From Pseudomonas phage sp. 30-2: DNA of 64,000 nucleotides. The stretch lies in sequence record LC727697.1; one strand, written 5' to 3'. Numbering within the stretch: the first letter of the stretch is position 1; each line of letters opens with the position of its first letter. Of this stretch, positions 2,445 to 29,181 are shown in pieces. The position numbers were made by a program, and so were the translations under genes. Under the pieces are notes generated by a model. It worked only from the letters and a program-made list of their open reading frames with translations. It was not told the DNA's origin and searched no databases.

Positions 2445-2672
2445 TTATTTAACTATTATCACTAATGCTATGAACACTATGCCCCATGCAATGTCTCCGT
2501 TAAATATAGCACCAATCCCGACAATGACCGAAAATACATCAATTAATGATCCTTTTCGTTCGGGCGACATAAATGCTGTGCATAGCAACAGTGCGATAAA
2601 ATACCAGATATTTCCAGTAACAATTGCAACAATAGAAGCTATGCATGCAACTATATTAGCAAGACCGCCCAT
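2445..2672 (-). CDS. small two-TM membrane protein (75 aa)
   Basis: Two hydrophobic helices. Stop abuts the hairpin. Confidence 0.5.
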   Translation of the reverse strand: MGGLANIVACIASIVAIVTGNIWYFIALLLCTAFMSPERKGSLIDVFSVIVGIGAIFNGDIAWGIVFIALVIIVK

Positions 2673-2673
2673 A

Positions 2674-3321
2674 TTATCCCCCTTGGGTCACGATGTATTC
2701 CCAATTAAGCCGGGTGACTCGACCGTCGACATTGCTGCGAATGCTCACTTGATCGTCGATTCCGCAGATGTTACCTTGTACATATTTCCATCGGGCAACA
2801 TCGTTGGGATACGAACGAAGGGGAACTACAGCCATAACTTCTTGCCCGAGATGATACCACCCGATGTCCAGATCGCTTTGCAAGCGGGCATATACGAGGC
2901 GAATCAATTCGGGACTAACAGACCATACCAAGTCTTTCTCTACATCCCACCACAAGACTGCCCCGCCGCGGATGGCCTTGCCGTCACTGAAGTAGTTACT
3001 GAATGAACAGAACTCGTCAGTAGTGTAGTCGAGGATCTCCCGACGATATTGTTCCCTGACCATCGAACCCGGTGCAAGGCACATACCATACACCGGAAAG
3101 TATCGGAAGAAGCAGCTCATGTTGCTTACTTGCAACGGCTGATCATCGTCATCGTAAACTTGAAACACCGTAGGGCTCGACTCGACTGAGCGGAAAGAAG
3201 AAACGAAGTTTTTAACACTCTCTTCGAATCCATCCAGCCGACCGGTGGTAGGACGCAACCATTTCAGCAGACCAGTGTTGTCCATGTCTACGTTTACGCT
3301 AAAAGAAAGATACTTAGACAT
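2674..3321 (-). CDS. hypothetical protein (about 215 aa, moderately GC-rich). Start chosen at MSKYLSFS.
   Basis: Long ORF at about 50% GC. AAGAG lies upstream of the internal ATG. The N-terminal 27 codons of the ORF-track call are doubtful. Confidence 0.5.
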   Translation of the reverse strand: MSKYLSFSVNVDMDNTGLLKWLRPTTGRLDGFEESVKNFVSSFRSVESSPTVFQVYDDDDQPLQVSNMSCFFRYFPVYGMCLAPGSMVREQYRREILDYTTDEFCSFSNYFSDGKAIRGGAVLWWDVEKDLVWSVSPELIRLVYARLQSDLDIGWYHLGQEVMAVVPLRSYPNDVARWKYVQGNICGIDDQVSIRSNVDGRVTRLNWEYIVTQGG

Positions 3322-3866: not shown

Positions 3867-3949
3867 TTTTACAACCTCGCATGTTGGTATCTTATATATT
3901 AAAACTATACATACTATTATGTGTGAATTCAAGCACTAAATTGTAACAA

Positions 3950-3970
3950 GTAAATAAGATTAATTTGCAC
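3950..3970 (-). promoter_or_regulatory. palindromic motif copy (gtaaataagattaatttgcac)
   Basis: Matches the motif consensus. Confidence 0.55.
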
Positions 3971-6277: not shown

Positions 6278-6516
6278 AGAACTTCTCCTAGCTTACAGTC
6301 TACTGCCTCTTCAAATTCAGCATAAGACATTTGCTGGTTATCGAAATAAATAACGTCATGAACGGCATCATAAATGTAAGTATAAATGTTGCCGAAATAT
6401 TTAATCTGCACAGAATTTAAAAGTTTCTTTTTCAGCGACATAACTGCTACTCCTGCGGATTTATGAGTTAAATGTACTATGTTAACAAGCTACAGTCAAC
6501 TGGTATTTTTCTTAAA

Positions 6517-6538
6517 TTGCAAATAAGATTAATTCGCG
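6517..6538 (-). promoter_or_regulatory. palindromic motif copy (ttgcaaataagattaattcgcg)
   Basis: Matches consensus. Followed at 6555-6585 by an imperfect hairpin plus T-run. Confidence 0.5.
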
Positions 6539-6776
6539 TTTGCTAGTTAGCAGCCGCAAAAAAATCCCATCTAAGGGATCCTTTTGCCCAAAAACATTCG
6601 ATTCAGACATCTGTCTTTTAAACGAATCGAAGCGGTGTTTCGGCATTCATAATTATCATCATCATAATGTATATTTAATGCTGCGGCGGCATACTCTTCA
6701 CCTCCAGGAAGCATATAATAGTTTTAGGTTAATGATTCCTACTAGCACTAAGGCATATGCCAGTAGACCGTTTTAA

Positions 6777-7010
6777 GACCTGCTACAAAGCGGGGTAAAG
6801 CATAGATACATACAGTGTACCTTTGTAGCTGTCCCGCCTGTAGCAGCAAGGTCTAGCAGTGTCCAGGGGCAGGTACGTCATTGACCGATTTCCGATTTAA
6901 GGAAAGGTATGCTGCGCCTTCCACGTTACTAGACCTTGTACACCTGTTTGCCGCAGCCCGCGAACATCGCGGGCGGGCTGCTTGCGGGACGGTGTCTCCC
7001 GTTTAGTGTT
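6777..7010 (-). ncRNA. candidate structured non-coding RNA or leader (GC-rich, multiple nested stems, no ORF)
   Basis: About 58% GC island with no ORF. Complementary segments tgctacaaag/ctttgtagc, caaggtctag/ctagaccttg, cagcccgcg..cgcgggctg and cggga..tcccg. Orientation is uncertain. Confidence 0.35.
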
Positions 7011-9817: not shown

Positions 9818-9850
9818 GCAAATGCAAATAAGATTAATTAGTGTTTGCAA
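9818..9850 (-). promoter_or_regulatory. palindromic motif copy (gcaaatgcaaataagattaattagtgtttgcaa)
   Basis: Matches consensus. Confidence 0.5.
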
Positions 9851-10228: not shown

Positions 10229-10282
10229 CAGTATTGATGCTGATACAAGAAACTGTAATAGTCTATATCAGCATCAATACTG
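10229..10282. repeat. perfect 17-bp inverted repeat cagtattgatgctgata / tatcagcatcaatactg with a 20-nt spacer
   Basis: Read directly. Not followed by a U-run on either strand. Confidence 0.6.
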
Positions 10283-10287
10283 ATAAT

Positions 10288-10518
10288 TTACTCTGTAGAC
10301 GTAGAAACTAGTGCTTGAACATTAATCGAGAAATTGCTATACATTTGATTAGTAAATTTCTCGAAATCATCTGATTCGACGAATTTTGCCATTGCAGCCA
10401 AAAAAGCTTTCTTTTTATCACTTTCGGGATCATCAGTAGGATGGGCATATTCACTGATAGCTTCGTTTTGGCCATGGATACCGATGTTAAAGACATATCC
10501 GTTATATTTGAGGCTCAT
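10288..10518 (-). CDS. hypothetical protein (76 aa)
   Basis: ORF. Confidence 0.45.
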   Translation of the reverse strand: MSLKYNGYVFNIGIHGQNEAISEYAHPTDDPESDKKKAFLAAMAKFVESDDFEKFTNQMYSNFSINVQALVSTSTE

Positions 10519-10601
10519 TTATGCTGCTCCTTCTGGTAGGATCATAATGATAATTCTCTCGCTTTACTTCAATTATTTCTTTGCATTCTTATAAAGCTGA
10601 T

Positions 10602-10829
10602 TTATTGTTTCCCAGTCGGGTTGTTCGTAGATGTCATATGGGTGAGCTCCGATTCAACAGCCTGTAGTGCTGCTCGCATTCTGGCATTCTCTGCCTTTAG
10701 CTGTTCCAGCTCAGCTATAAGACTGAGAATTTCTTGTGGCTTTGCTGATGCTATTAACGCCACATAGCTATCAAATTTACAATCGAGAGCCTGTTCCGCT
10801 AGCTTCTTCATTTTGTTGATGTCAATCAT
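10602..10829 (-). CDS. Ea22/Ead-like N-terminal-type small protein (coiled coil)
   Basis: MKKLAEQAL start and an LEQLKAEN heptads region resemble the N-terminal part of lambdoid Ea22-like proteins. About 50% GC. Confidence 0.45.
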   Translation of the reverse strand: MIDINKMKKLAEQALDCKFDSYVALIASAKPQEILSLIAELEQLKAENARMRAALQAVESELTHMTSTNNPTGKQ

Positions 10830-10853
10830 TTGGTGGCTCCTTTGAGGATTTCG

Positions 10854-11168
10854 TTAAGATCGCAGCATCTCGGCGAGTTGATCGACAGTCTCTCGCAGCG
10901 CCTCGTTCTCCGCCTTGAGTTTGTCGATCTCGTCTAGCAAGTCGAGGACGGCTCGGGGGTTGGCGGCAGCACAGAAAGTGGCGTTAGCCTTGTCCTGCTC
11001 CAAATCGCTGTAAAAGCCTTCGTTACCGATCACGACTTCGCCATTGTCCGCTCGGATTACAGGAAACAGATTCGACCATGCAATGTCATCGCCTTCCTCC
11101 CAAGTTGCATACCACGGACCCGGCGTAGCCAGTTTTGCTAGCTTTTTTATTTTGTTGGTGTCGGTCAT
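10854..11168 (-). CDS. Ea22/Ead-like family protein
   Basis: KKLAKLATPGPW plus ...AAANPRAVLDLLDEIDKLKAENEALR, the characteristic PGPW signature. About 55% GC. Confidence 0.6.
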   Translation of the reverse strand: MTDTNKIKKLAKLATPGPWYATWEEGDDIAWSNLFPVIRADNGEVVIGNEGFYSDLEQDKANATFCAAANPRAVLDLLDEIDKLKAENEALRETVDQLAEMLRS

Positions 11169-11356
11169 GGAATCATCTCCGCCATTTCGGTAATAGCCTT
11201 TGCTAGGGCAAGGGCGTGTTCACAGTTACGGGCGCTTTTGCGAAGTGGAGTGCTGACGATGCGCATGTTAGTCACCCAAAATGTAAGCGATTAGGCAGGC
11301 GTAAATGGCCAGTCCAGGATGGCCAGAGAAGGCAAGGACTAGAGCGATTACCCAGA

Positions 11357-11623
11357 TCATGCGATCTCCTCCTTCGCCTGCAGTGTCATGTTGAGGTTAT
11401 ATTGCTTAGCGCAGGAGCAAAGGCGGCGAAGTTCATCGTTCTCGTCCGCCATGTGAAAAAATTCGATGTTGTAGTTGTTCAGCTTCAACTTACCGCTGCT
11501 GAATTTGGCAGATACGCGATGGCCTTGCGTGTGCAGGCTAAGGCCAAGATAGCGGAGTATCGACCTGTGGTCGGTTGGGATAGGTTCGTTCTTTGTGTTG
11601 ACGACAAACAAATTGATGGTCAT
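11357..11623 (-). CDS. hypothetical protein (88 aa)
   Basis: ORF fills the gap, ending 4 nt from the next gene. Confidence 0.4.
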   Translation of the reverse strand: MTINLFVVNTKNEPIPTDHRSILRYLGLSLHTQGHRVSAKFSSGKLKLNNYNIEFFHMADENDELRRLCSCAKQYNLNMTLQAKEEIA

Positions 11624-11626
11624 GCT

Positions 11627-12028
11627 TCACCCGAAGTCATACGCTTTCAGAACGCCATGTTTATCGTAGCCGACTTGACCACAATCTATGCTGCCTACCC
11701 AATCAGGAAAGTTTGCATGGGTGTTGTTCTTCCAATCCACTTCAACCAAACGCTCTTGCATGACGCAAATGAAGCCTCCGATTTCTAGCCAGCGTCCGCG
11801 CGCCAAGTAGCTGCCGGAACAGCTACCTTCCCAATCGTTGCACCGCTCACCCCTGTCATTAATCGGGAACTTCAGGACGTAATGCTTAGATAGAAAGCAT
11901 GCCCGTGTGATACCAATCTTCGGCTCACCGTACTTGGCAAACAACCGATTCAGTTGTTGCTGGGCAAGTTCATTGCGGTGCTGGGCGATGAAACCGCCAA
12001 ACAGCAATTTGTCCAACACAATGTTCAT
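11627..12028 (-). CDS. hypothetical protein (133 aa, GC-rich island)
   Basis: ORF at about 52% GC. Confidence 0.5.
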   Translation of the reverse strand: MNIVLDKLLFGGFIAQHRNELAQQQLNRLFAKYGEPKIGITRACFLSKHYVLKFPINDRGERCNDWEGSCSGSYLARGRWLEIGGFICVMQERLVEVDWKNNTHANFPDWVGSIDCGQVGYDKHGVLKAYDFG

Positions 12029-12052
12029 TCTGCGTGTCCTACGTGGAGACCA

Positions 12053-12487
12053 TTACAGATCCCGGATAGCTTCGGCGTTTTTTTCAAACCACTTGACTAG
12101 CTTTTGCATAGCTTCGGCTGGTGTCTTGCCCTTGATCTTGCGGAACTTGATCACTTCCGAACGATAGGGGATAGACCACGTTAGCAGCTCAATTTCGACC
12201 GGCGAACCTTCTGGCAATACATTCCCGCGATTGTCACACAAATTCATCATAAAGCGCATGTAACCGCTCGCATTCATCAGAATGCTGTTCGGGGCTTCGG
12301 AAGCGCAACCGACATTCGCAAACGAAATTGTCATCGACGGACCAAGGTTATCGGAAACCGACGCGGCGGCGATGTAATTCGGAAAAATCTTAGCCATGGA
12401 AGTTTTGAAGTCTTCGGCGGCTTGCTTGGTGTTTTCTACGATCATTTTTGAATCTCCGGGGCTGTTAGTCATGGCTTGTCTCCCCAT
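12053..12487 (-). CDS. hypothetical protein (up to 144 aa; start uncertain)
   Basis: ORF at about 50% GC. Confidence 0.45.
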   Translation of the reverse strand: MGRQAMTNSPGDSKMIVENTKQAAEDFKTSMAKIFPNYIAAASVSDNLGPSMTISFANVGCASEAPNSILMNASGYMRFMMNLCDNRGNVLPEGSPVEIELLTWSIPYRSEVIKFRKIKGKTPAEAMQKLVKWFEKNAEAIRDL

Positions 12488-12735
12488 TTCACTTCAAGCC
12501 ACAGGTCAACAGACTGGCGTCCTTCGGCATGCACCGCACAGTCGAAGCCGAGACTACGCAACACTTTGAGGATCGCTTCGCTGCGCCGCGAGGTGCCGAT
12601 GCCGAACCCATAGGCGCGGGTAGTGTACACGTACTTTCCTTCTGCGGCTGCTTTGGCGATGTCGTTGAGGATGGCATCGACATCGTCTTTCGCTCGCGCT
12701 ATGTCACGGGCTTGCTCAGCGGTCAGTCTGCTCAT
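12469..12735 (-). CDS. hypothetical protein (88 aa, start MSRLTAEQARDIARAK)
   Basis: ATGA overlap with the upstream gene. About 58% GC. Confidence 0.5.
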   Translation of the reverse strand: MSRLTAEQARDIARAKDDVDAILNDIAKAAAEGKYVYTTRAYGFGIGTSRRSEAILKVLRSLGFDCAVHAEGRQSVDLWLEVKWGDKP

Positions 12736-13055
12736 TTCACTGCCTCGATACCGGCTTCTTGGAGGGCTTCTTCCTGCGCCTTGAGCATTGCTTCGTAGGC
12801 TGGGAGGCATAGACCTCCTATGTAGTTTGTATCTGGGCAGACCACGGCGTCGTAGGTATCTTCCAACCAAGACGGGCACTGCCGCGGCATCGGGACGTAA
12901 TCCTTCATCAGTGCCACACGACTGGCTTTCCAGGCCTCGTAGCGTGCCTGAACATGCGGGTTGAGGTACAAGTCGTCGACTGCATTGTACGCAAGCGGTG
13001 CCGAAGAACGAGTCCGAACCCACGATTCAAATTCTTTTTTCATGTTAGGCTCCAT
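12732..13055 (-). CDS. hypothetical protein (107 aa)
   Basis: About 55% GC ORF. Translationally coupled to the downstream gene. Confidence 0.5.
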   Translation of the reverse strand: MEPNMKKEFESWVRTRSSAPLAYNAVDDLYLNPHVQARYEAWKASRVALMKDYVPMPRQCPSWLEDTYDAVVCPDTNYIGGLCLPAYEAMLKAQEEALQEAGIEAVK

Positions 13056-13083
13056 TAAATCAAAACGTTATGTGTTACTTCTA

Positions 13084-13123
13084 CTATACGTACTAACAGT
13101 ATACAACGTATTAGTACGTATAG
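13084..13123. repeat. perfect 13-bp inverted repeat ctatacgtactaa / ttagtacgtatag with a 14-nt spacer at the GC-island boundary
   Basis: Read directly. Confidence 0.6.
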
Positions 13124-13131
13124 CAAACGAA

Positions 13132-13719
13132 TTATTTGTCTATCCACGCAAAGTAAAATGACTTGTCCTCGGGACAACCTACTTTGATGTACTGATACGT
13201 GTCAACATCAGTATTCTCTTTTACTAGAGCTACTAATCTATCAATACAATTGAAATTTGACTCGCTACTATCTTTACGCACAAACCACGGAGTGATCTGG
13301 ATTTCTGATCCCAAATGATACATAACTGCTTTTATGTTTTTTGCAACAAACCAACTGTCAGAAATATCTACTGCACTGTGGTTAACAGTTACATAATCTG
13401 CATTATCGGGTGTTACACTAAATAGGTAATCGACATCCGGTAAACGAACCATACTAAGTGTGGCATATCCTTTAGTGATGTGTTTAGCTTCTATACCAAG
13501 TTCGTTCAGTATACTTTCAGTAGAATGACTCCAAAATTCTACTATATTGATAATAACACGCCACTGAGCTGATTGAAGGATCCGATATTGGATGATACGT
13601 AACTTGCCGGTCCACTCATAGCTTCGTTCATCCATAACTGCTTCGACTTCGATATCATCCCCGTCTTTGATATCCCATGCATAGCACATATCATTTCTCC
13701 TGTATATAGTTTTATGCAA
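13132..13719 (-). CDS. hypothetical protein (195 aa)
   Basis: Long AT-rich ORF. Confidence 0.5.
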   Translation of the reverse strand: MHKTIYRRNDMCYAWDIKDGDDIEVEAVMDERSYEWTGKLRIIQYRILQSAQWRVIINIVEFWSHSTESILNELGIEAKHITKGYATLSMVRLPDVDYLFSVTPDNADYVTVNHSAVDISDSWFVAKNIKAVMYHLGSEIQITPWFVRKDSSESNFNCIDRLVALVKENTDVDTYQYIKVGCPEDKSFYFAWIDK

Positions 13720-13770
13720 CTACATGTAATGTAGCACTTCAAAATAGAAAACACAATAGGATTAAATTTG

Positions 13771-13796
13771 TGCAAATAAGATTAATTAGTATTTGC
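13771..13796 (-). promoter_or_regulatory. palindromic motif copy (tgcaaataagattaattagtatttgc)
   Basis: Matches consensus. Confidence 0.55.
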
Positions 13797-13809
13797 TAAT
13801 ATAGATCCA

Positions 13810-13837
13810 AAAAGAAAGGGAATTATAATTCCCTTTC
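13810..13837 (-). terminator. GC-clamped hairpin aaagaaaggg-aattataatt-ccctttct
   Basis: Same family. Downstream of 13848-14396. Confidence 0.6.
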
Positions 13838-13847
13838 TAAATATGCA

Positions 13848-14396
13848 TTATTTCTTTGCATTCTTATAAAGTTGATTTATTGTTTCCCAGTTGGGATGTT
13901 CAGAATCCCATACTTGCCAATTAGGATAACAAAGTTTTATTTCAGATAACCTCTTTGTAGTAACGTCATTAAACAATGAAAAATCTTCCTTCATTGTTTC
14001 GTATACATTGTCCGGTAACATGTTGTCGGCTTTTTTGTAATATTCTGTTACTTCGTTGAAACTCGAGTATTTCTTTAAAAGTCGACGAAATTCTTTTACA
14101 TTCTTTTCATATCTTGCATACAAAGGTGCTAATACGTTGAATGCATTATAATTAAATCCTATCTTATATACTACATTCATTTCTCGAAGATCTGTCATGA
14201 ATCGATTCTGAACTTCGTATAATTCGTTAAATGAAGGAGTAAGAACACCAATACGTTTAACAAACGACAGTGATGACTTGCGCTTAGATTGATCATCACT
14301 ACCTGAAGGTTCGAATTTAAATTCCAAGTCGGCAACTGGATTTACCTTGTAATGTTCTAGAAAGAAATAAAATACTTCTAATGCTTTGTAGTTCAT
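13848..14396 (-). CDS. hypothetical protein (182 aa)
   Basis: ORF. Its last 55 bp are duplicated at 10573-10627. Confidence 0.5.
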   Translation of the reverse strand: MNYKALEVFYFFLEHYKVNPVADLEFKFEPSGSDDQSKRKSSLSFVKRIGVLTPSFNELYEVQNRFMTDLREMNVVYKIGFNYNAFNVLAPLYARYEKNVKEFRRLLKKYSSFNEVTEYYKKADNMLPDNVYETMKEDFSLFNDVTTKRLSEIKLCYPNWQVWDSEHPNWETINQLYKNAKK

Positions 14397-14983
14397 TCTT
14401 TATTCCATAATGTGTTTTTGTAATGTAGCATGTTTAAATCAATTTCTCTTACATAAAACTTCTTTGTTTCGTTAGTACATATAGAATGAACATGCATATG
14501 TTCTTGTAGTTCATTTACCATACTATCATTAATACAGACAAATATATCTCCTGTTTCTAATCGAATATACTTATTGTTTGAAATATAATTAAGATTAAAC
14601 GGATTCTCGTGAATTCCAATATTAGCTGTTGCCCAGCTAACTTGAGTATTCTCTTTAATATTAAAAACATTTCCACGAGGAACTGAATCGTAAAACATTC
14701 TTATATCTCCTACTCTAAATTTAGAGCAATCAGTAATAGAAATATACGAATGTACAACAGGTGTTTTTTTATCTAGTTTGACATCATTTTCTACATATGT
14801 ATAAGAAATAATTACCTTTATATAATCACGACTATGTGATATTTCAGTATGTAGGAATGTTTTATTTCTTAGTAATTTATATGAGATATATCCTGACTCA
14901 AAAGTCTTCAGATAATTTATTTTGAAATTTTCTTCTATTAGACTAGTGTATCGATTAATAGCAGCAGTCAAAGAAAATGACAT
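14393..14983 (-). CDS. hypothetical protein (196 aa)
   Basis: ATGA coupling to the downstream gene. Confidence 0.5.
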   Translation of the reverse strand: MSFSLTAAINRYTSLIEENFKINYLKTFESGYISYKLLRNKTFLHTEISHSRDYIKVIISYTYVENDVKLDKKTPVVHSYISITDCSKFRVGDIRMFYDSVPRGNVFNIKENTQVSWATANIGIHENPFNLNYISNNKYIRLETGDIFVCINDSMVNELQEHMHVHSICTNETKKFYVREIDLNMLHYKNTLWNKE

Positions 14984-18184: not shown

Positions 18185-18217
18185 TGCAATTACAAATAAG
18201 AGTAATTTGCAATTGCA
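18185..18217 (-). promoter_or_regulatory. palindromic motif copy (tgcaattacaaataagagtaatttgcaattgca)
   Basis: Matches consensus. Confidence 0.5.
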
Positions 18218-18523
18218 ACTCATACAATAAGAAAATGAATTAGATAATAAATGATACCTTAGTAATATTGAAAGAATATGTAGGCCAAATAGAAGTAGAA
18301 TTATTAATCTTAATATCTATCATATGTATACCATAAGCTTTATGATATAGTATATTAGATAGACCGTTTGATATAAAGAATATATTCATATTAATACTTT
18401 TTTATAAAAGTAATGCAAGTATTGTCTAATATAGGAACTGTCGGAATAATTATCATTAAAGAAAACGCAGGTGTGTTTACTTCTAGATAGTAGTCATATG
18501 TAAAATTATTGACTGTTATATAG

Positions 18524-18748
18524 TCATTTCTTATTCCACGACATATCTCTAATATAGTGTTCATAACTTCCTACAGGTATTGTATTAGAAATAATTTTAG
18601 ATACAAGTATGTTATTATAAAATGGATAGGTTATAAAAATATCAGCGTCGCGTGTTATTATGTCTATGTAACAGCATTGTGTCGCTGGCATAGAATACCA
18701 AGTTATTGCATACAAACTAGCTGATATAGAAAATATAGTTAAAGACAC
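18524..18748 (-). CDS. hypothetical protein (74 aa)
   Basis: ORF. Confidence 0.35.
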   Translation of the reverse strand: MSLTIFSISASLYAITWYSMPATQCCYIDIITRDADIFITYPFYNNILVSKIISNTIPVGSYEHYIRDMSWNKK

Positions 18749-18780
18749 AGTAGTATAGTATATAGATTATATGGTCATGA

Positions 18781-18808
18781 AGAAAGGGGAGCAAATTGCT
18801 CCCCTTTC
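18781..18808 (-). terminator. GC-clamped hairpin aaaggggagc-aaat-tgctcccctttc
   Basis: Downstream of 18824-19528. Confidence 0.6.
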
Positions 18809-18823
18809 GGCGCAGTTGGGCAA

Positions 18824-19528
18824 TTACTTGCTTTCCTGCGCCGCCCCGGCGATCGCTGCGTTCTTTTCAGCGACCTTTTCGGCGCGCTCAGCTTCGCGCT
18901 TGGCCTTGCGTTCGTCAGCTTCGCGCTTGGCAGCCGCCGCTTTTTCTTCGCGTTCCTTCTTCTCGGCATCGCGCTTGGCCTTGCGTTCGGCAGCTTCTGC
19001 CTCGGCCTGCGCTTTGCGGTTGATCAGGAAGCCCTTGCCGCTGTTCGCCTTGCCGGCGCCGAGTTCAAAGACGAAGCCCAGGCGACGCAGCTTGTTGCCG
19101 ACGGAAGTGCTGTTCTGCTCGAAGTTGGCCTTGTCGACCCCGTCGAACACCAGGGTAGCTTCGTCGAAGCCGGTGTGGGTGATGGCCGCCTTGACGATCG
19201 CGATCGCGTTGCTGAGCCGGCTTTCGTCGGTGAGCGGTTTCGGACCCTTCTGCCCGGGAACTTTCGGTTCCGGGGTGTACTTGGCCGCCAGTTCCTTGCC
19301 GTCGAGCGCCTGCTCGATTTCGCGGGTGATGCGGATCGCGCTGAACACTTCCTTCTGCTCGAACTGTACGACGGTGCCATCTGCCAGTTCGACTTCGGCG
19401 GTCGCCGACCAGGTGCGCTTGCTCGGGGTGGTGTAAGTAGCCATGGTCTGGCCGATGACCACGCCGTTGATTGCCAGTGCCAGGACGTGCTGTTTGTCGG
19501 TACGTTGACGAGTGATATGTACGGACAT
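18824..19528 (-). CDS. GC-rich hypothetical protein with a long charged C-terminal helix (KAQAEAEAAERKAKRDAEKKEREEK...). Paralog of 659-1114.
   Basis: About 62% GC. Shared blocks with 659-1114. The overlapping antisense or out-of-frame ORFs are GC artefacts. Confidence 0.7.
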   Translation of the reverse strand: MSVHITRQRTDKQHVLALAINGVVIGQTMATYTTPSKRTWSATAEVELADGTVVQFEQKEVFSAIRITREIEQALDGKELAAKYTPEPKVPGQKGPKPLTDESRLSNAIAIVKAAITHTGFDEATLVFDGVDKANFEQNSTSVGNKLRRLGFVFELGAGKANSGKGFLINRKAQAEAEAAERKAKRDAEKKEREEKAAAAKREADERKAKREAERAEKVAEKNAAIAGAAQESK

Positions 19529-19900
19529 GTTGTATACCTCTGTAGCTGATGGAAGGATTATGTTGTTTACTTACTACACTTTCGGGGCACTTACCCCTTA
19601 AGCTTGTATACAGTGTAGAGCCTAGTTTGCATTGCGTCAAGCATTTTTTGTTTACTTTCTGCGTTGCTTACTATGTAGCGCTCTACACACTGCGTCTACA
19701 GTTCGCACTTTAAGGTCGTAGTAATGGAAAGTCAAGCATTTTTTAAAATATTTTTAAATTATTTTTTACCATCTTGTATACGCGCGCGAGCTATATATAG
19801 CAAGGTCAATCAGTATGGTGTAGAATTATAATTTATAAACAAATCAACTACTTATCTACTATCCATTTCCAAGTATGCTACCAATCCATATACTGGGCAG

Positions 19901-20027
19901 TGCAAATGCAAATAAGATTAATTATTATTTGCATATTCTTTTTCGTTGCAAATGCAAATACGAATTAGTCTTATTTACAATAACAAATGAAATTACAAAC
20001 GCAAATAAGAATTAGTCTTATTTGCAA
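19901..20027 (-). promoter_or_regulatory. cluster of three palindromic motif copies interleaved with direct repeats
   Basis: tgcaaatgcaaataagattaattattatttgca, ttgcaaatgcaaatacgaattagtcttatttacaa and gcaaataagaattagtcttatttgcaa. Confidence 0.55.
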
Positions 20028-20164: not shown

Positions 20165-20686
20165 GATATAAATGCTCCTCAGAACAGTCACGTGCTCTGT
20201 ATCTGGGCAAATTATGCTCGTCAGCACAACGGAGCGGTATATCTTGCCTAAGGAATTGTTATTTGTATAAAGCCCCTTACTCTTTATACTCAGCTAGAAT
20301 ATACAATACTAAGGAATCACTAGCATCATCCTTAGGTCTATCTGGTTATACCAGAATCGACATATCTAAACAACATAGGAGGTATTTACGTATGCAACAG
20401 CGCATAACTTGTATATAGTATATGCATATGTGTATGTAATGTAAATGTTATTTTTATTAATTTACAGATAGTTTCTGTTCTTAATCTTTTCTAAACTATC
20501 AAAAATAAAAGATTAGCCAATGCATCGACAACATGCGCGATTGCATTTTGCATATACACTCAGAACACAAAATGTAAATGCAAAATGCAAATGCGGATCC
20601 GAGTTTGTGCCTAAAATTGAATTTGGAAACCGGAATTGCGATTTAGAATTCCAAAACCTAAATCGCAATTCCGAATGGCCGAATAC

Positions 20687-21094
20687 TTACTGATGAATGC
20701 CCATCTGGTGTTTCAGGTACTCGAGGGCGTTGTAGCTATTGCACTCGGCTTCGCTGCGAAGCTGACCTTCGCTTGCCGGGTAATATAGATCGCCTTTGCC
20801 TTGTGCTAGCAAGAAGCACATAGCACGAACGAGACCTTCAGACTGCACATGACTTACAGAAGACATCTGTGCATTGAGAAGTTCGGTGCCGTTAAACTCG
20901 ATGTAGTCGCCGCTTTCGAGACGACTCGCAGCATGTTCACGTCCGGTCTTGCGGTTGAAGTTATCCATTTCCGAACATGCTGCTACGGAAATACGGATCT
21001 TGTTGCCGGCGGTTTCCCAGGCAACAGTAGCGCCACGGCGGTTATCGATCTGTTGAGTTTCTTCGTTGTAGAAACGAATGTGAGTATGTTGCAT
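20687..21094 (-). CDS. GC-rich hypothetical protein (135 aa)
   Basis: About 50% GC ORF in an AT-rich context. Confidence 0.55.
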   Translation of the reverse strand: MQHTHIRFYNEETQQIDNRRGATVAWETAGNKIRISVAACSEMDNFNRKTGREHAASRLESGDYIEFNGTELLNAQMSSVSHVQSEGLVRAMCFLLAQGKGDLYYPASEGQLRSEAECNSYNALEYLKHQMGIHQ

Positions 21095-27517: not shown

Positions 27518-27835
27518 TTAGACAAAACTATTGTATATAGCATGTTGAAGAAAACCGTTAGCAAACACCATATTAACAATAATATCTGTTTTACCAGAAA
27601 CTGATTTTAAATGTTTAACTTCTATTAACGATAGAATAGATTGCATATGCAATAATCCTATCACATCACATAAATTATTATACAAACAATATGCATCATA
27701 TGACACATGTTTTCTCCCCATAGGCAACGTAATTCCATATACGAACTCCCTATTATGCGCATTAAGCATATCAATGATTTGTTTGGTATATACAATCTCA
27801 TGACACTGAGATTGAAGTAATAGTATGAAATCCAT
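27518..27835 (-). CDS. paralog-array family member
   Basis: MDFILLLQSQC ... IGLLHMQSIL. Confidence 0.5.
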   Translation of the reverse strand: MDFILLLQSQCHEIVYTKQIIDMLNAHNREFVYGITLPMGRKHVSYDAYCLYNNLCDVIGLLHMQSILSLIEVKHLKSVSGKTDIIVNMVFANGFLQHAIYNSFV

Positions 27836-27838
27836 ATA

Positions 27839-28108
27839 TTATTTCAAATCAACATGTATTTCATGTACAAACCTATTATTATTAGCAAAAGTAAAAGAAA
27901 TATAATTGTCCGTATGCATGAAAAATTTATAATTACAGTATTGTAAATGAAGAATACCAAGTAAGCAATTGATATTTCTATAATACAGTCTAATACCGTT
28001 ACCTGTAATCATAGCTATATGCTTTTCATTCTTGTTGTTAAGACGGACGTACCATTCACTATAGTCCATCTCTACAGTATTATGTTGAAGAAATAGTATC
28101 AGATCCAT
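27839..28108 (-). CDS. paralog-array family member (one of a recently duplicated pair)
   Basis: MDLILFLQHNTVE ... LLGILHLQYCNY. About 75% identical to the 28112-28384 product. Confidence 0.6.
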   Translation of the reverse strand: MDLILFLQHNTVEMDYSEWYVRLNNKNEKHIAMITGNGIRLYYRNINCLLGILHLQYCNYKFFMHTDNYISFTFANNNRFVHEIHVDLK

Positions 28109-28111
28109 ATA

Positions 28112-28384
28112 TTATTTCAAATCAGCATATATTTTATGTACAAATCTATTATTATTAACAAATGTAAAAGAAATATAATTGCCCATATACTTGAATAAAA
28201 AATCATAATTACAATATTGTAAATGAAGAATACCAAGTAAGCTATTAATATTTCCATAATACATTTTAAAACCGTTATCGGTAATCATAGCCATACTATC
28301 TTCATTCTTGTTGTTAAAACGAATGCACCATTCGCACGCGTCTATCTCTACAGTATTATGTTGAAGAAATAGTATCAGATCCAT
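28112..28384 (-). CDS. paralog-array family member (one of a recently duplicated pair)
   Basis: Near-identical to the 27839-28108 product. Confidence 0.6.
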   Translation of the reverse strand: MDLILFLQHNTVEIDACEWCIRFNNKNEDSMAMITDNGFKMYYGNINSLLGILHLQYCNYDFLFKYMGNYISFTFVNNNRFVHKIYADLK

Positions 28385-28639
28385 AACTAGTTGTCCTGTA
28401 TATACGTTATACTACGAAATGGAATTATATTAACAAGCGTACAGTAGGTGAGTTGTATAGAGTCACGGTTTATATACGTATAGCATACTATATTCCGTAT
28501 ATGTTATGCAAACGGGAATATATAATGAAACCGGCCTATATAGCAAGAATTGGAAATTTTCAAAAAAAATATTTTTTATTGAAAAAGAACTTATATTTTA
28601 TAAGAAGGTCCCTATATAGCAGAAAACGGATTTTTCCAA

Positions 28640-28745
28640 AAAAAATCTATAAAAATGGTTAGAAATGGCTAGAAATGGAAAGAAAATGGATGTAACTGGG
28701 AAGAATATAAATGTAACTGGAAAGAAAATGGATGGGACCTATAGA
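28640..28745. repeat. purine-rich microrepeats (tagaaatgg x3, aatggatgtaactggaaag x2)
   Basis: Read directly. Confidence 0.55.
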
Positions 28746-28819
28746 GCAAGATTTCCAAAATTTTGGTCCTTCTTTCTTCGGTGATGTTAGGGTTCACCGA
28801 AATATGTACTATATAATTC

Positions 28820-29165
28820 ACTTATTATTTGTACACTATCACTATCTTATTAGTATCACTCAGTATCACTCATTATTTGTACACTATAGCTATCTATCAG
28901 TATTGGTATTAGTATCACTTCTATAAGTATCACTCATTATTCACTATCTATTGGTATTATCAATCAACATTATTCATTATTTGTTACACTATAGCTATCT
29001 CAGTATTAGTATTTTAGTATTAGTATCTATCAGTATTATCACTCATTATTTGTATACTATAGCTATATCTATCAGTATTAGTATTATCACTCATTGGTTG
29101 TTACACTATAGTTTCTATCTATTAGAGTATTATCACTCATTAGTTATAGTGTAGTGATTTCTATC
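28820..29165. repeat. iteron-like array of at least 5 direct repeats of a roughly 50-bp unit (tatcactcattatttgtacactatagctatctatcagtattagtatt), ending in an inverted partial copy
   Basis: Unit copies start near 28822, 28862, 28974, 29037 and 29086. The plus-strand ORFs 28732-28926 and 28951-29154 are translations of the repeats. Confidence 0.65.
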
Positions 29166-29181
29166 ATTCATCTTCATTACT

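Follow-up and report, generated by a model that had tools for sequence, protein, structure and literature searches.

Morons and mosaic non-essential regions are familiar from the lambdoid phages, in which the b/ea region of lambda holds ea22. In T4-type phages, hyperplastic regions and their PeSL-mediated modular shuffling have been described (Arbiol et al., 2010, PMC2839356; Comeau et al., 2014, PMC4122927), and mosaicism arising by illegitimate recombination at gene boundaries has been discussed as well (PMC3029335). The GC-rich block and associated direct repeat considered here are a recombination scar in a mosaic accessory locus, i.e. a feature of a known kind, of which no description was found for the PA5oct-like phage group in the literature searched.

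Genomic setting of the locus

The window, namely the whole 64-kb stretch of DNA that was analysed (LC727697.1), comes from a PA5oct-like (Wroclawvirus) jumbo phage of Pseudomonas aeruginosa, ten Wroclawvirus records matching it at 95-98% identity. The recipient phage is a virulent one, with a jumbo genome of 287 kb at 33% GC. In PA5oct, the locus occupies 15.7-18.4 kb of the annotated 39-kb terminal repeat, the genes of which were reported to show high early transcription (PMC7318152); the window's own island genes are presumably co-transcribed early too. Within the first 29 kb of the window, which is terminal-repeat DNA, the interval at 10.5-13 kb is the sole variable stretch besides bases 1-500, the remaining GC-rich islets being conserved in PA5oct and Paride.

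Composition and gene content of the GC-rich block

An initial annotation had described a 3.2-kb GC-rich island, bounded by a direct repeat and standing out from surroundings at about 30% GC. The compositional step is genuine, since the segment 10830-13043 has 52.1% GC and a GC3 of 59-67% per gene, against 27-38% GC and a GC3 of 17-34% in the native flanks, but the GC-rich part measures some 2.4 kb and is 790 nt away from the right repeat copy. The foreign composition, at 52% GC against 29-32%, is also seen in the k-mer comparison suggested at the time, which was run on trinucleotides: the island profile correlates with that of early regions of temperate P. aeruginosa phages (r = 0.70-0.72) as opposed to that of native DNA (r = -0.26 to -0.35).

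The island genes are all on the minus strand, co-oriented with the flanks, and their start and stop codons overlap. First in the direction of transcription comes gene H (12732-13043, 103 aa, phiTE_015-like/phrog_343), of which only the ribosome-binding site, the start codon and the first six codons (MKKEFE) are common to all relatives. Next to it, gene G (12469-12735, 88 aa) is the one island gene that no relative lacks. Its product shares 65% identity with gp032 of the temperate phage YMC11/02/R656, in which the gene likewise comes after an Ea22-like one, and its structure model gave no significant fold match. Genes F (12053-12472, 139 aa), E (11627-12028, 133 aa) and D (11357-11623, 88 aa, GC3 67%) have no family match, and are followed by two short ORFs (11165-11360; 33 and 30 aa), annotated in Cassandra, the second of which is hydrophobic. 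Gene B (10854-11168, 53% GC) codes for an Ead/Ea22-like protein, with 41.5 bits against PF13935 for a cut-off of 27 (32.1 bits for PA5oct gp057) and E = 7e-24 against phrog_4029. Paride and Deifobo have different genes there except for the 57 nt at the 5' end of gene B, which they share at 100% identity.

Gene B is the only island gene of the window to pass the Pfam Ead/Ea22 threshold, so that of the two Ea22-like genes initially proposed one stands as such. The other, gene A' (10602-10829, minus strand), has a GC content of 44%, between the island and native values, and neither it nor full-length PA5oct gp058 matches PF13935 at the Pfam gathering threshold. Residues 1-56 match phrog_4029 (E = 1e-6) and the N-terminal 59 residues are 61% identical to PAE2_24, a paralogue of Ea22-like genes; gene A' is related to the Ea22 family through these 59 residues only, below the level of the family model.

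Scans of all island ORFs against Pfam, PHROGs and NCBIfam revealed no recombinase, integrase, transposase or homing-endonuclease domain. Consensus scans yielded no convincing internal minus-strand promoter or terminator among the window's island genes, the sole minus-strand promoter-like match (13126-13098) and the minus-strand terminator-like matches falling outside the island. The genes probably have dispensable roles in host takeover or inter-phage competition.

The cargo resembles early genes of GC-rich P. aeruginosa phages, and on this point, as on the foreign composition, the initial interpretation is supported. The window's modules show 70-78% DNA identity to YMC11/02/R656, PAE2, LC3I3 and PAK_P5/KPP10-like phages, and the homologues in YMC11/02/R656 and PAE2 adjoin the integrase, where their order is the same or they are Ea22 paralogues in tandem. 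Since this 70-78% is the nearest match of the window's modules outside Wroclawvirus, the putative donors are to be seen as a pool rather than as single phages. A match of 90-95% identity across some 500 bp links the PA5oct-type phosphatase module to D3, PMG1, JBD44, PAJU2, Ab31 and others. Whether transfer went into or out of the jumbo phage would be read from composition, which suggests the former.

Flanking native genes and intergenic elements

To the right of the block lies the homologue of PA5oct gp052 (13132-13689, minus strand), a gene of native composition (38% GC) found in all relatives and placed between the block and the right repeat copy. An 88-nt spacer separates it from gene H and contains an inverted repeat with perfect 13-bp arms (13084-13096 and 13111-13123), which as minus-strand RNA would form about 19 pairs with no U-tract after them. 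This hairpin (-24.2 kcal/mol, z = -4.1) is conserved in all relatives. It had been placed exactly at the composition switch; its arms are indeed perfect, but they sit 40-60 nt right of the point where the relatives cease to align (13025-13043).

Beyond the gp052 homologue, a composite intergenic element (13771-13838) combines a 26-nt palindromic motif (13771-13796) with the terminator hairpin of the gp051 homologue (13813-13838). Ten copies of this element occur in the first 20 kb of the window, and the one at 13771-13838 is the only copy in the island interior and at its edges; the hairpin at 13084-13123 and the left boundary element occur once each. The gp051 homologue itself (13848-14396, minus strand, 182 aa, 32% GC) is restricted to Wroclawvirus, with no homologue outside the genus, and is the source of the repeated tail. 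On the left, the homologue of PA5oct gp059 (10288-10518, minus strand, 76 aa) is directly downstream of the left repeat copy and is followed by a perfect 17-bp inverted repeat (10229-10282).

Variation among related phages

Twelve relatives were compared, namely nine GenBank genomes and three independent read-archive contigs. In all 12, this site holds a GC-rich block whose right edge is common to them, while its left edge varies and its content differs in nearly every genome, at least 12 configurations being found among 13 genomes or contigs with 95-99% identical flanks. The initial annotation had named a shared position, shared boundaries and native GC content in all relatives as speaking against its reading; the site and the right edge are shared, whereas GC is non-native everywhere.

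The differences between genomes lie inside the block, at breakpoints located mostly at gene starts and stops (10530/31, 10581-90, 10842, 11170-88, 11618, 12463-68, 12746-67 and 13025/26). Besides, chimeric genes are joined at conserved motifs such as AWKASRVAL, at which H alleles are joined, and MTDTNKIKKLAKL, and gp3670 of phi30-3 combines the N-terminus of B with the C-terminus of Paride_0333. Presence or absence of a cassette between short direct repeats was encountered in one real case, a 94-aa cassette of SRR30213626 flanked by direct repeats of a 17-55-nt boundary element (AAATAATTGAAGTAAAG...) different from the 54-bp repeat. Module 10, a cassette of SRR30213626, Callisto and SRR22477850, has a consensus-like TTGACG-17-TAATAT promoter upstream, as identified by consensus scan. 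With a fixed position between conserved genes and variable content, the locus is a hyperplastic or mosaic accessory region, and breakpoints at gene boundaries or short motifs together with chimeric genes are likewise those of a mosaic accessory region.

The direct repeat and the chimeric gene

The repeat reported initially is real. Positions 10573-10626 and 13848-13901 align in direct orientation with 51 of 54 positions identical (94%), including perfect runs of 24 and 19 nt (E = 1.5e-17 by self-BLAST of the 64-kb window); counted across 55 positions, there are four mismatches and not three. Without gaps, the similarity reaches 81 nt (10546-10626 vs 13821-13901, 84%), i.e. 27 nt beyond the stop codon into the trailer. 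The right, original copy (13821-13901) covers the final 17 codons of gene 13848-14396 with their stop, and a 27-nt trailer extending to the loop of the terminator hairpin, and is identical or near-identical across all relatives. The left copy (10546-10626), found in the window, Cassandra, PA5oct and SRR30213626 only, has a core of 17 codons and stop (10573-10626) and a degenerate version of the trailer (10546-10572), with no terminator hairpin (-4.1 kcal/mol, z = +0.3). At the same place, relatives devoid of it carry another AT-rich tail, DLKEDKK followed by a stop codon. The left copy is an ectopic piece of the native gene's 3' end and trailer joined to a foreign-type Ea22-family gene, which supports the idea of a recombination scar; the tail peptide was found nowhere outside Wroclawvirus.

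The further proposal, that the island entered or can exit by recombination between the two copies, found no support. If the copies were working sites, homologous recombination would excise and reinsert a 3.2-kb segment comprising the island and the gp052 homologue, possibly as a circle resembling the PeSL mini-circles of T4-type phages. The length, identity, uninterrupted runs and direct orientation of the copies would suit such a role, the right copy abuts a repeated terminator/motif element resembling PeSL (PMC2839356), and another short direct repeat of the locus does flank a presence/absence cassette. The alleles of the left copy are also compatible with gene conversion: that of the window differs at six positions from that of PA5oct and SRR30213626 and agrees with the right copy at five of the six, with three differences from the right copy against seven. 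The copies could therefore still interact, which if real would argue against a purely passive fossil, although the numbers are too small to decide. Against working sites, the 12 relatives offer no example of the predicted 3,275-bp deletion joint, of an empty site or of an island-free state; no genome compared lacks the segment between the repeats, and all 12 retain gene 13132-13689 between the two repeat positions. In addition, most relatives carry the island without having the left copy, so that the repeat is not needed for it, the right copy is off the composition boundary, with the gp052 homologue and a promoter/terminator region intervening, and the left copy has neither the repeated motif nor a hairpin. 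Such a role is considered improbable, and the 54-bp repeat is probably an old splice scar instead of a working excision site.

A second possibility concerns the encoded peptide, P[ND]WE[TI]INQ[LY]YKNAKK, which could be a functional C-terminal module, e.g. an interaction or virion-targeting tag, grafted and kept by selection. The 107-aa PA5oct gp058 is a chimera of an Ea22-family coiled-coil N-terminus, the homology of which stops at about residue 60, and the tail of the gp051 homologue, and this tail is in frame and intact as the C-terminus of both gp058 and its counterpart in the metagenomic contig SRR30213626. PA5oct gp051 is moreover flagged as detected by virion mass spectrometry, and of the three differences that separate the window's copies, two are conservative replacements (H/Q and N/D). 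On the other hand, gene A' is a frameshifted derivative of gp058: the window has a 67-bp deletion relative to both PA5oct gp058 and SRR30213626, because of which the tail is out of frame in the window and in Cassandra, and hence dispensable there. The left copy holds the final eight codons of ORF 10602-10829 together with its stop (10602-10604) and, as first noted, in a frame other than that of gene 13848-14396. The similarity extending into the non-coding trailer points to copying of DNA and not to selection on a peptide; most relatives have no second copy, and gp058 bears no virion-associated flag. Selection for a functional tail is accordingly held to be very improbable.

Finally, a chimeric assembly, or contaminating DNA of the host or of a GC-rich phage, which the abrupt compositional step and the homology of the block to other P. 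aeruginosa phages might have suggested, is refuted by the comparative data and retains practically no probability, as independent isolates from Poland, the UK, Switzerland, Thailand and Japan and three unrelated read-archive assemblies carry the block with the same site and right junction, its genes being co-oriented with the flanks and overlapping by their start and stop codons.

Proposed origin of the locus

The likely explanation is that the long, early-transcribed terminal repeat of this PA5oct-like jumbo phage harbours a hypervariable locus for accessory genes, in which the direct repeat is a fossil. Tightly packed, co-oriented small GC-rich genes would have been placed between the native gp052 and gp059 homologues, the array being drawn from the pool of genes found in GC-rich P. 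aeruginosa phages, above all those near the integrase in the early regions of temperate siphoviruses, as exemplified by the tandem Ea22-family genes and the Ea22-to-G gene pair. At its right end, the array would borrow the native promoter region, hairpin, ribosome-binding site and start codon, and at its left end a native-type stop and trailer. The 54/81-nt repeat would be what is left of one illegitimate joining event, by which the last 17 codons, stop and 27-nt trailer of the gp051 homologue became attached to the 3' end of an Ea22-family gene, the joined copy breaking off in the loop of the terminator hairpin. A later 67-bp deletion in the lineage of the window and Cassandra would have turned the tail into a non-coding relic, which by chance provides a stop. 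Turnover may proceed through recombination, homologous or homeologous, in which the partners are other Wroclawviruses as well as co-infecting phages or prophages, with crossovers where short sequences are conserved around the starts and stops of genes, and small deletions or insertions between short direct repeats may contribute too. Every relative carries the island and the gp051 homologue is confined to the genus, so that none of the genomes compared shows an ancestral state from which the order of events behind the left copy could be read. All in all, the initial observation is confirmed and its interpretation is supported for the scar, but not for entry or excision through the repeat pair.

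Comparison with known systems

A direct repeat that duplicates a gene 3' end beside DNA of foreign composition recalls att-bounded genomic islands. Unlike these, the locus has no integrase and no empty site in any relative, and the repeat is off the composition boundary and absent from most island-carrying genomes; with no site-specific recombinase among the island ORFs (Pfam, PHROGs, NCBIfam), the right copy 790 nt outside the GC step and 0 of 12 empty sites, an integrative island of the att type was rejected. An integron-like cassette array was set aside as well, neither an integrase nor a recurring structured site being present between cassettes.

Closer are the hyperplastic regions of T4-type phages, with which the locus shares small, non-essential early genes having no known function, a content that varies between near-identical phages, and insertions, deletions and replacements at short conserved sequences near gene ends. 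As with PeSL, the window has a repeated composite intergenic element (hairpin and 26-nt motif). The cassettes are, unlike PeSL-bounded ones, not individually flanked by it, and with one copy of the composite element and single-copy elements at the edges the cassettes are not of the PeSL-type regulatory kind. Besides, the cargo differs from that of T4-type regions in being strongly foreign in composition and in matching unrelated phages of the same host.

The lambdoid morons and mosaics likewise place genes of foreign composition between conserved ones, with junctions at or near gene boundaries, and Ea22-family genes also occur in tandem and as chimeras. With its putative promoter, module 10 recalls a classical moron, whereas most island genes of the window show no convincing promoter or terminator in consensus scans and would depend on the native transcription unit. 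What sets the locus apart from the lambdoid case is that the recipient is not temperate but a virulent, 33% GC jumbo phage, and that the junctions fall a few codons inside the genes (6 at the 5' end, 8-17 at the 3' end), resulting in in-frame grafts.

Genomic setting of the locus

When region 10400-14500 is compared with GenBank, ten records match, all of them P. aeruginosa jumbo phages of the genus Wroclawvirus at 95-98% identity, the named ones being PA5oct, MIJ3, Paride, Cassandra, Ettore, Deifobo, Callisto, phi30-3 and PAC2; a near-full-length alignment is obtained with Cassandra only. The PA5oct counterpart of the locus lies at about 15.7-18.4 kb, within a terminal repeat to which the PA5oct record assigns 39 kb. 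This repeat is reported to hold 105 genes, many of them highly transcribed early, in a genome whose GC content is 33%, that of the host being 66% (PMC7318152). Neither GC-rich islands nor this locus are mentioned in the papers on PA5oct, MIJ3 and Paride. The compositional step reported in the initial annotation is borne out, as 10830-13043 has 52% GC (GC3 59-67%) against 27-38% GC (GC3 17-34%) in the neighbouring DNA.

Over the first 29 kb of the window, this island is the sole stretch not conserved in PA5oct and Paride, except for bases 1-500, which are without match in the corresponding stretch of either phage and suggest a second variable spot at the window edge. A 59-nt direct repeat of 98% identity is found at 1-59 and 585-643. 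The idea that every GC-rich islet of the terminal repeat is a variable cassette site was rejected, since the other islets (501-1500, 2501-3000, 6501-7000, 18501-19500 and 20501-21000) are conserved in PA5oct and Paride. GC content in these islets reaches 63% at 19001-19500, and the trinucleotide profile of the 18650-19600 islet resembles that of temperate Pseudomonas phages (r = 0.73). Further along, a 276-bp unit repeated 2.1 times and several arrays with periods of 21-46 nt occupy 27812-28385 and 28676-29166, around the place (about 28.8 kb) where homology to position 1 of the PA5oct record stops and which corresponds to the physical end of the genome or to the boundary of the terminal repeat. 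Judging from positions, the repeat region labelled 'CRISPR' in the Paride record would fall by offset at about 28.36-28.72 kb of the window, where it overlaps the first array and may be one of these arrays.

Fixed edges and variable content

The locus was compared in eight GenBank relatives and in three read-archive assemblies (SRR31012036, SRR30213626 and SRR22477850), which represent independent configurations found by exact-protein look-up of the gp051 homologue (13848-14396, minus strand). In every relative, a GC-rich block (about 45-64% GC in 250-nt windows) lies between the same two native genes, namely the homologues of gp052 (13132-13689) and gp059 (10288-10518), with an island length ranging from about 1.3 kb in phi30-3 to about 3.5 kb in Deifobo. 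When the proteins are clustered, each of nine genomes has a gene order of its own, the three read-archive contigs add three more orders, and the only universal island gene is the 88-aa G (12469-12735). In IMG/VR, no further Wroclawvirus contig was found, either by the 25-nt invariant flank sequence or by the protein of the gp051 homologue.

The right edge is common to all: alignment stays near-perfect across the hairpin at 13084-13123 and the ribosome-binding site and into the first island gene (H, 12732-13043, in the window), of which it covers the ATG and six opening codons (MKKEFE); past these, at least four unrelated continuations exist among the relatives. In PA5oct, MIJ3 and Deifobo, these codons persist as a dead stub (MKKEFELRCPTSRCSRWSK followed by a stop) ahead of a phosphatase gene. 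Regarding the left edge, the relatives devoid of the repeat copy discussed below carry another AT-rich tail in the same place, DLKEDKK and a stop, on two unrelated genes and with two different spacers after it; both edges of the island therefore fall a few codons inside a gene. Inside the island, many genes are chimeras with joints at short conserved motifs. The H alleles diverge after AWKASRVAL, with a 29-nt 100% match to Paride, and the N-terminus MTDTNKIKKLAKL is common to Ea22-type genes, with a 57-nt 100% match in Paride and Deifobo. Relative to the window, most breakpoints are no more than about 25 nt away from a start or stop codon.

Source of the cargo

The trinucleotide profile of the island correlates negatively with that of native DNA and positively with the early regions of the temperate P. 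aeruginosa phages YMC11/02/R656 and PAE2 (r = 0.70-0.72). At the DNA level, window modules share 70-78% identity with P. aeruginosa phages outside Wroclawvirus, namely YMC11/02/R656, PAE2, LC3I3, FBPa47, IME307 and PAK_P5/KPP10-like myoviruses. In YMC11/02/R656, a G homologue (65% amino-acid identity) comes directly after an Ea22-like gene near the integrase, and in PAE2 three tandem Ea22-family paralogues stand near the integrase; both arrangements are mirrored in the island. Closer matches are found in the relatives: the dual-specificity phosphatase module of PA5oct type (about 500 bp; gene gp053, at 5406-5873 of L003, the PA5oct locus) is 90-95% identical to D3, PMG1, JBD44, PAJU2, Ab31, YMC P52/P54 and others, and homology to these donors stops within the dead MKKEFE stub of gene H. 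Besides, a 37-nt stretch at the end of the H-like PA5oct gene gp054 (L003 5101-5137) is 100% identical in about 100 Pakpunavirus genomes. From composition and DNA matches together, it follows that the island exchanges with a GC-rich Pseudomonas phage gene pool, in some cases fairly recently, and composition points to transfer into the jumbo phage.

The direct repeat as a probable historical marker

The direct repeat described in the initial annotation is present, 10573-10626 and 13848-13901 being identical at 51 of 54 positions; ungapped similarity extends to 81 nt at 84% (10546-10626 vs. 13821-13901), and the pair reaches E = 1.5e-17 in a self-BLAST. On the right, the repeat does not coincide with the compositional boundary: the copy there lies 790 nt past the GC step, from which gene 13132-13689, of native composition, separates it. 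This right copy consists of the last 17 codons and the stop of the gp051 homologue, whose C-terminal end reads SEHPNWETINQLYKNAKK before the stop, then of 27 nt of trailer, and it stops in the loop of the terminator hairpin of that gene (13813-13838; -14.7 kcal/mol; followed by a U-run). The left copy is devoid of hairpin (folding z = +0.3), leads directly into the ribosome-binding site of gene 10288-10518 and is confined to the window, Cassandra, PA5oct and SRR30213626. The PA5oct record flags EST35_0051, the counterpart of the gene that donated the tail, as detected by virion mass spectrometry.

In PA5oct gp058 (107 aa) and in SRR30213626, the left copy is in frame and forms the C-terminus, GAHSYDIYEEPDWEIINQYYKNAKK followed by the stop. 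Over its N-terminal 59 residues, and no further, gp058 resembles the Ea22-family paralogue PAE2_24 (61-63% identity). It is therefore a chimera, in which a short linker joins a coiled-coil head of foreign origin to a tail that is native, as are the stop and trailer. In the window and Cassandra, 67 bp (3 x 22 + 1) are missing just upstream of the tail, which shifts the frame and creates the stop at 10602; ORF 10602-10829 indeed terminates within the left copy in a different frame, as the initial annotation had it. Since SRR30213626, otherwise 97.6% identical to the window over 10641-14500, has the undeleted form, the deletion is the derived state; its junctions also carry substitutions, and exact microhomology at the endpoints is accordingly not definable.

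The repeat is a scar, as previously proposed, but the genomes lend no support to entry or exit of the island by way of the two copies: none has the corresponding 3,275-bp deletion, and most carry an island without the left copy. The repeat is most plausibly a relic of illegitimate joining, with a break in the hairpin loop, and was partly disabled later; it is a historical marker rather than a mechanism. Two alleles of the left copy are known, with six differences, and at five of these six sites, the only ones available, the window allele matches the right copy, which could reflect slower divergence or gene conversion. No homologue of the gp051 homologue or of its tail peptide was found outside Wroclawvirus, and there is consequently no outgroup. 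Scanned once each for the 22-nt repeat core, the metagenome and genome collections yielded a single match apiece; both were dismissed as chance matches, being similar to the window over only about 23-26 nt at that core.

Recombination between boundary repeats does occur here, at the pair formed by the stop-plus-trailer element AAATAATTGAAGTAAAG and not at the 54-bp pair. In SRR30213626 (5283-5760 of its contig), a 94-aa GC-rich cassette with its own consensus-like TTGACG-17-TAATAT promoter lies between two copies of this element, which match perfectly over 17 nt and are similar over about 55 nt. The cassette is absent from PA5oct and the window, where the left gene is present; in Ettore, MIJ3 and SRR31012036, the cassette is present and gp058 absent. 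The cassette promoter region is common to Callisto and SRR22477850 (88% over 165 nt), and the upstream sequence differs in Ettore and MIJ3. The left boundary element as a general cassette-flanking repeat was rejected, as each genome has one copy and only SRR30213626 has two.

Expression and gene function

The island array is co-oriented with its neighbours, its starts and stops overlap or are closely spaced (e.g. ATGA at 12732-12735), and no convincing internal terminator was found on the minus strand. It is placed between the native promoter/terminator region (13700-13840) and a strong hairpin at 10229-10282, formed directly downstream of gene 10288-10518 by perfectly paired 17-bp arms around a 20-nt loop. 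This hairpin is probably the end of the island-carrying transcription unit; its sole Rfam match, a sub-threshold microRNA, was discarded as meaningless. One early transcript would then comprise the gp052 homologue, the 13084-13123 hairpin, the cargo and the gp059 homologue. The inverted repeat of the initial annotation is confirmed, with perfect 13-bp arms at 13084-13096 and 13111-13123; as minus-strand RNA it folds at -24.2 kcal/mol, is devoid of U-tract and has no Rfam match, and among its variants two single-base changes keep pairing on minus-strand RNA and one on plus-strand RNA.

Searches of Pfam, PHROGs and NCBIfam for the function of island genes returned only Ea22, phiTE_015-like/phrog_343 and families of unknown function, plus a DSPc-type phosphatase in relatives. 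Two Ea22-like genes had been proposed; 10854-11168 passes the Pfam Ea22 model and is the only one to do so. Genes E and F have no match in a PDB sequence search, no PDB fold significantly matches the AlphaFold model of gene G (pLDDT 73; best Foldseek E-value 0.09), and neither tRNA genes nor known RNA families were found. Position, size and variability suggest that the island genes are dispensable genes for host takeover or phage competition.

Significance

PA5oct-like phages (PA5oct, MIJ3 and Paride) count among the candidates for therapeutic use, and one of them, Paride, is known for its ability to kill dormant cells (PMC10761892). Part of the value of the locus lies in the gene flow that it documents: strictly virulent jumbo phages of AT-rich composition exchange DNA with GC-rich phages of the same host, some of them temperate, and some modules are shared with temperate phages at 90-95% identity. 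This bears on safety assessment and on gene flow across phage lifestyles. For engineering, it offers a natural cargo-tolerant site, with 1.3-3.5 kb of variable, presumably dispensable DNA between fixed flanks in an early-expressed terminal repeat. Besides, the short list of small early genes, with G universal and the rest optional, is worth screening for host-takeover or inter-phage competition functions.

Comparison with known systems

Models based on an att site or an integron fail, as neither a recombinase nor an empty site is present and no site recurs from one cassette to the next. A broader reading would make the locus a recombinase-independent gene-capture site, at which a 33%-GC virulent jumbo phage repeatedly samples early genes of unrelated 55-64%-GC P. 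aeruginosa phages or prophages. The reusable splice points would be the 54/81-nt repeat derived from a native stop and terminator, the 17-55-nt AAATAATTGAAGTAAAG element and the conserved ribosome-binding site with its first codons; thanks to them, captured genes would remain under native signals for early expression, gene conversion would still operate between the two repeat copies, and the whole would be functionally analogous to the PeSL shuffling of T4-type phages, in a jumbo-phage lineage unrelated to these. That all these parts hold together seems rather unlikely.

A PeSL-like, partly palindromic element, TGCAAATAAGATTAATT (AGTATTTGC), does occur in ten copies (at most two mismatches) against 0.2 expected, all intergenic and in the first 20 kb: 580-596, 1548-1564, 3949-3965, 6518-6534, 9823-9839, 13771-13787, 18191-18207, 19907-19923, 19963-19979 and 20010-20026. 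Half of them stand 10-14 nt from a terminator-like hairpin. The element resembles a composite one, of terminator/operator or promoter type, and recalls the PeSLs of T4-type phages; it differs from that class in that it does not flank individual cassettes here. The island of the window is a mosaic accessory hot spot of a known kind, whose closest analogues are the hyperplastic regions of T4-type phages with their PeSL-mediated shuffling (PMC2839356, PMC4122927) and, in lambdoid phages, the non-essential regions with their mosaic structure and their morons.
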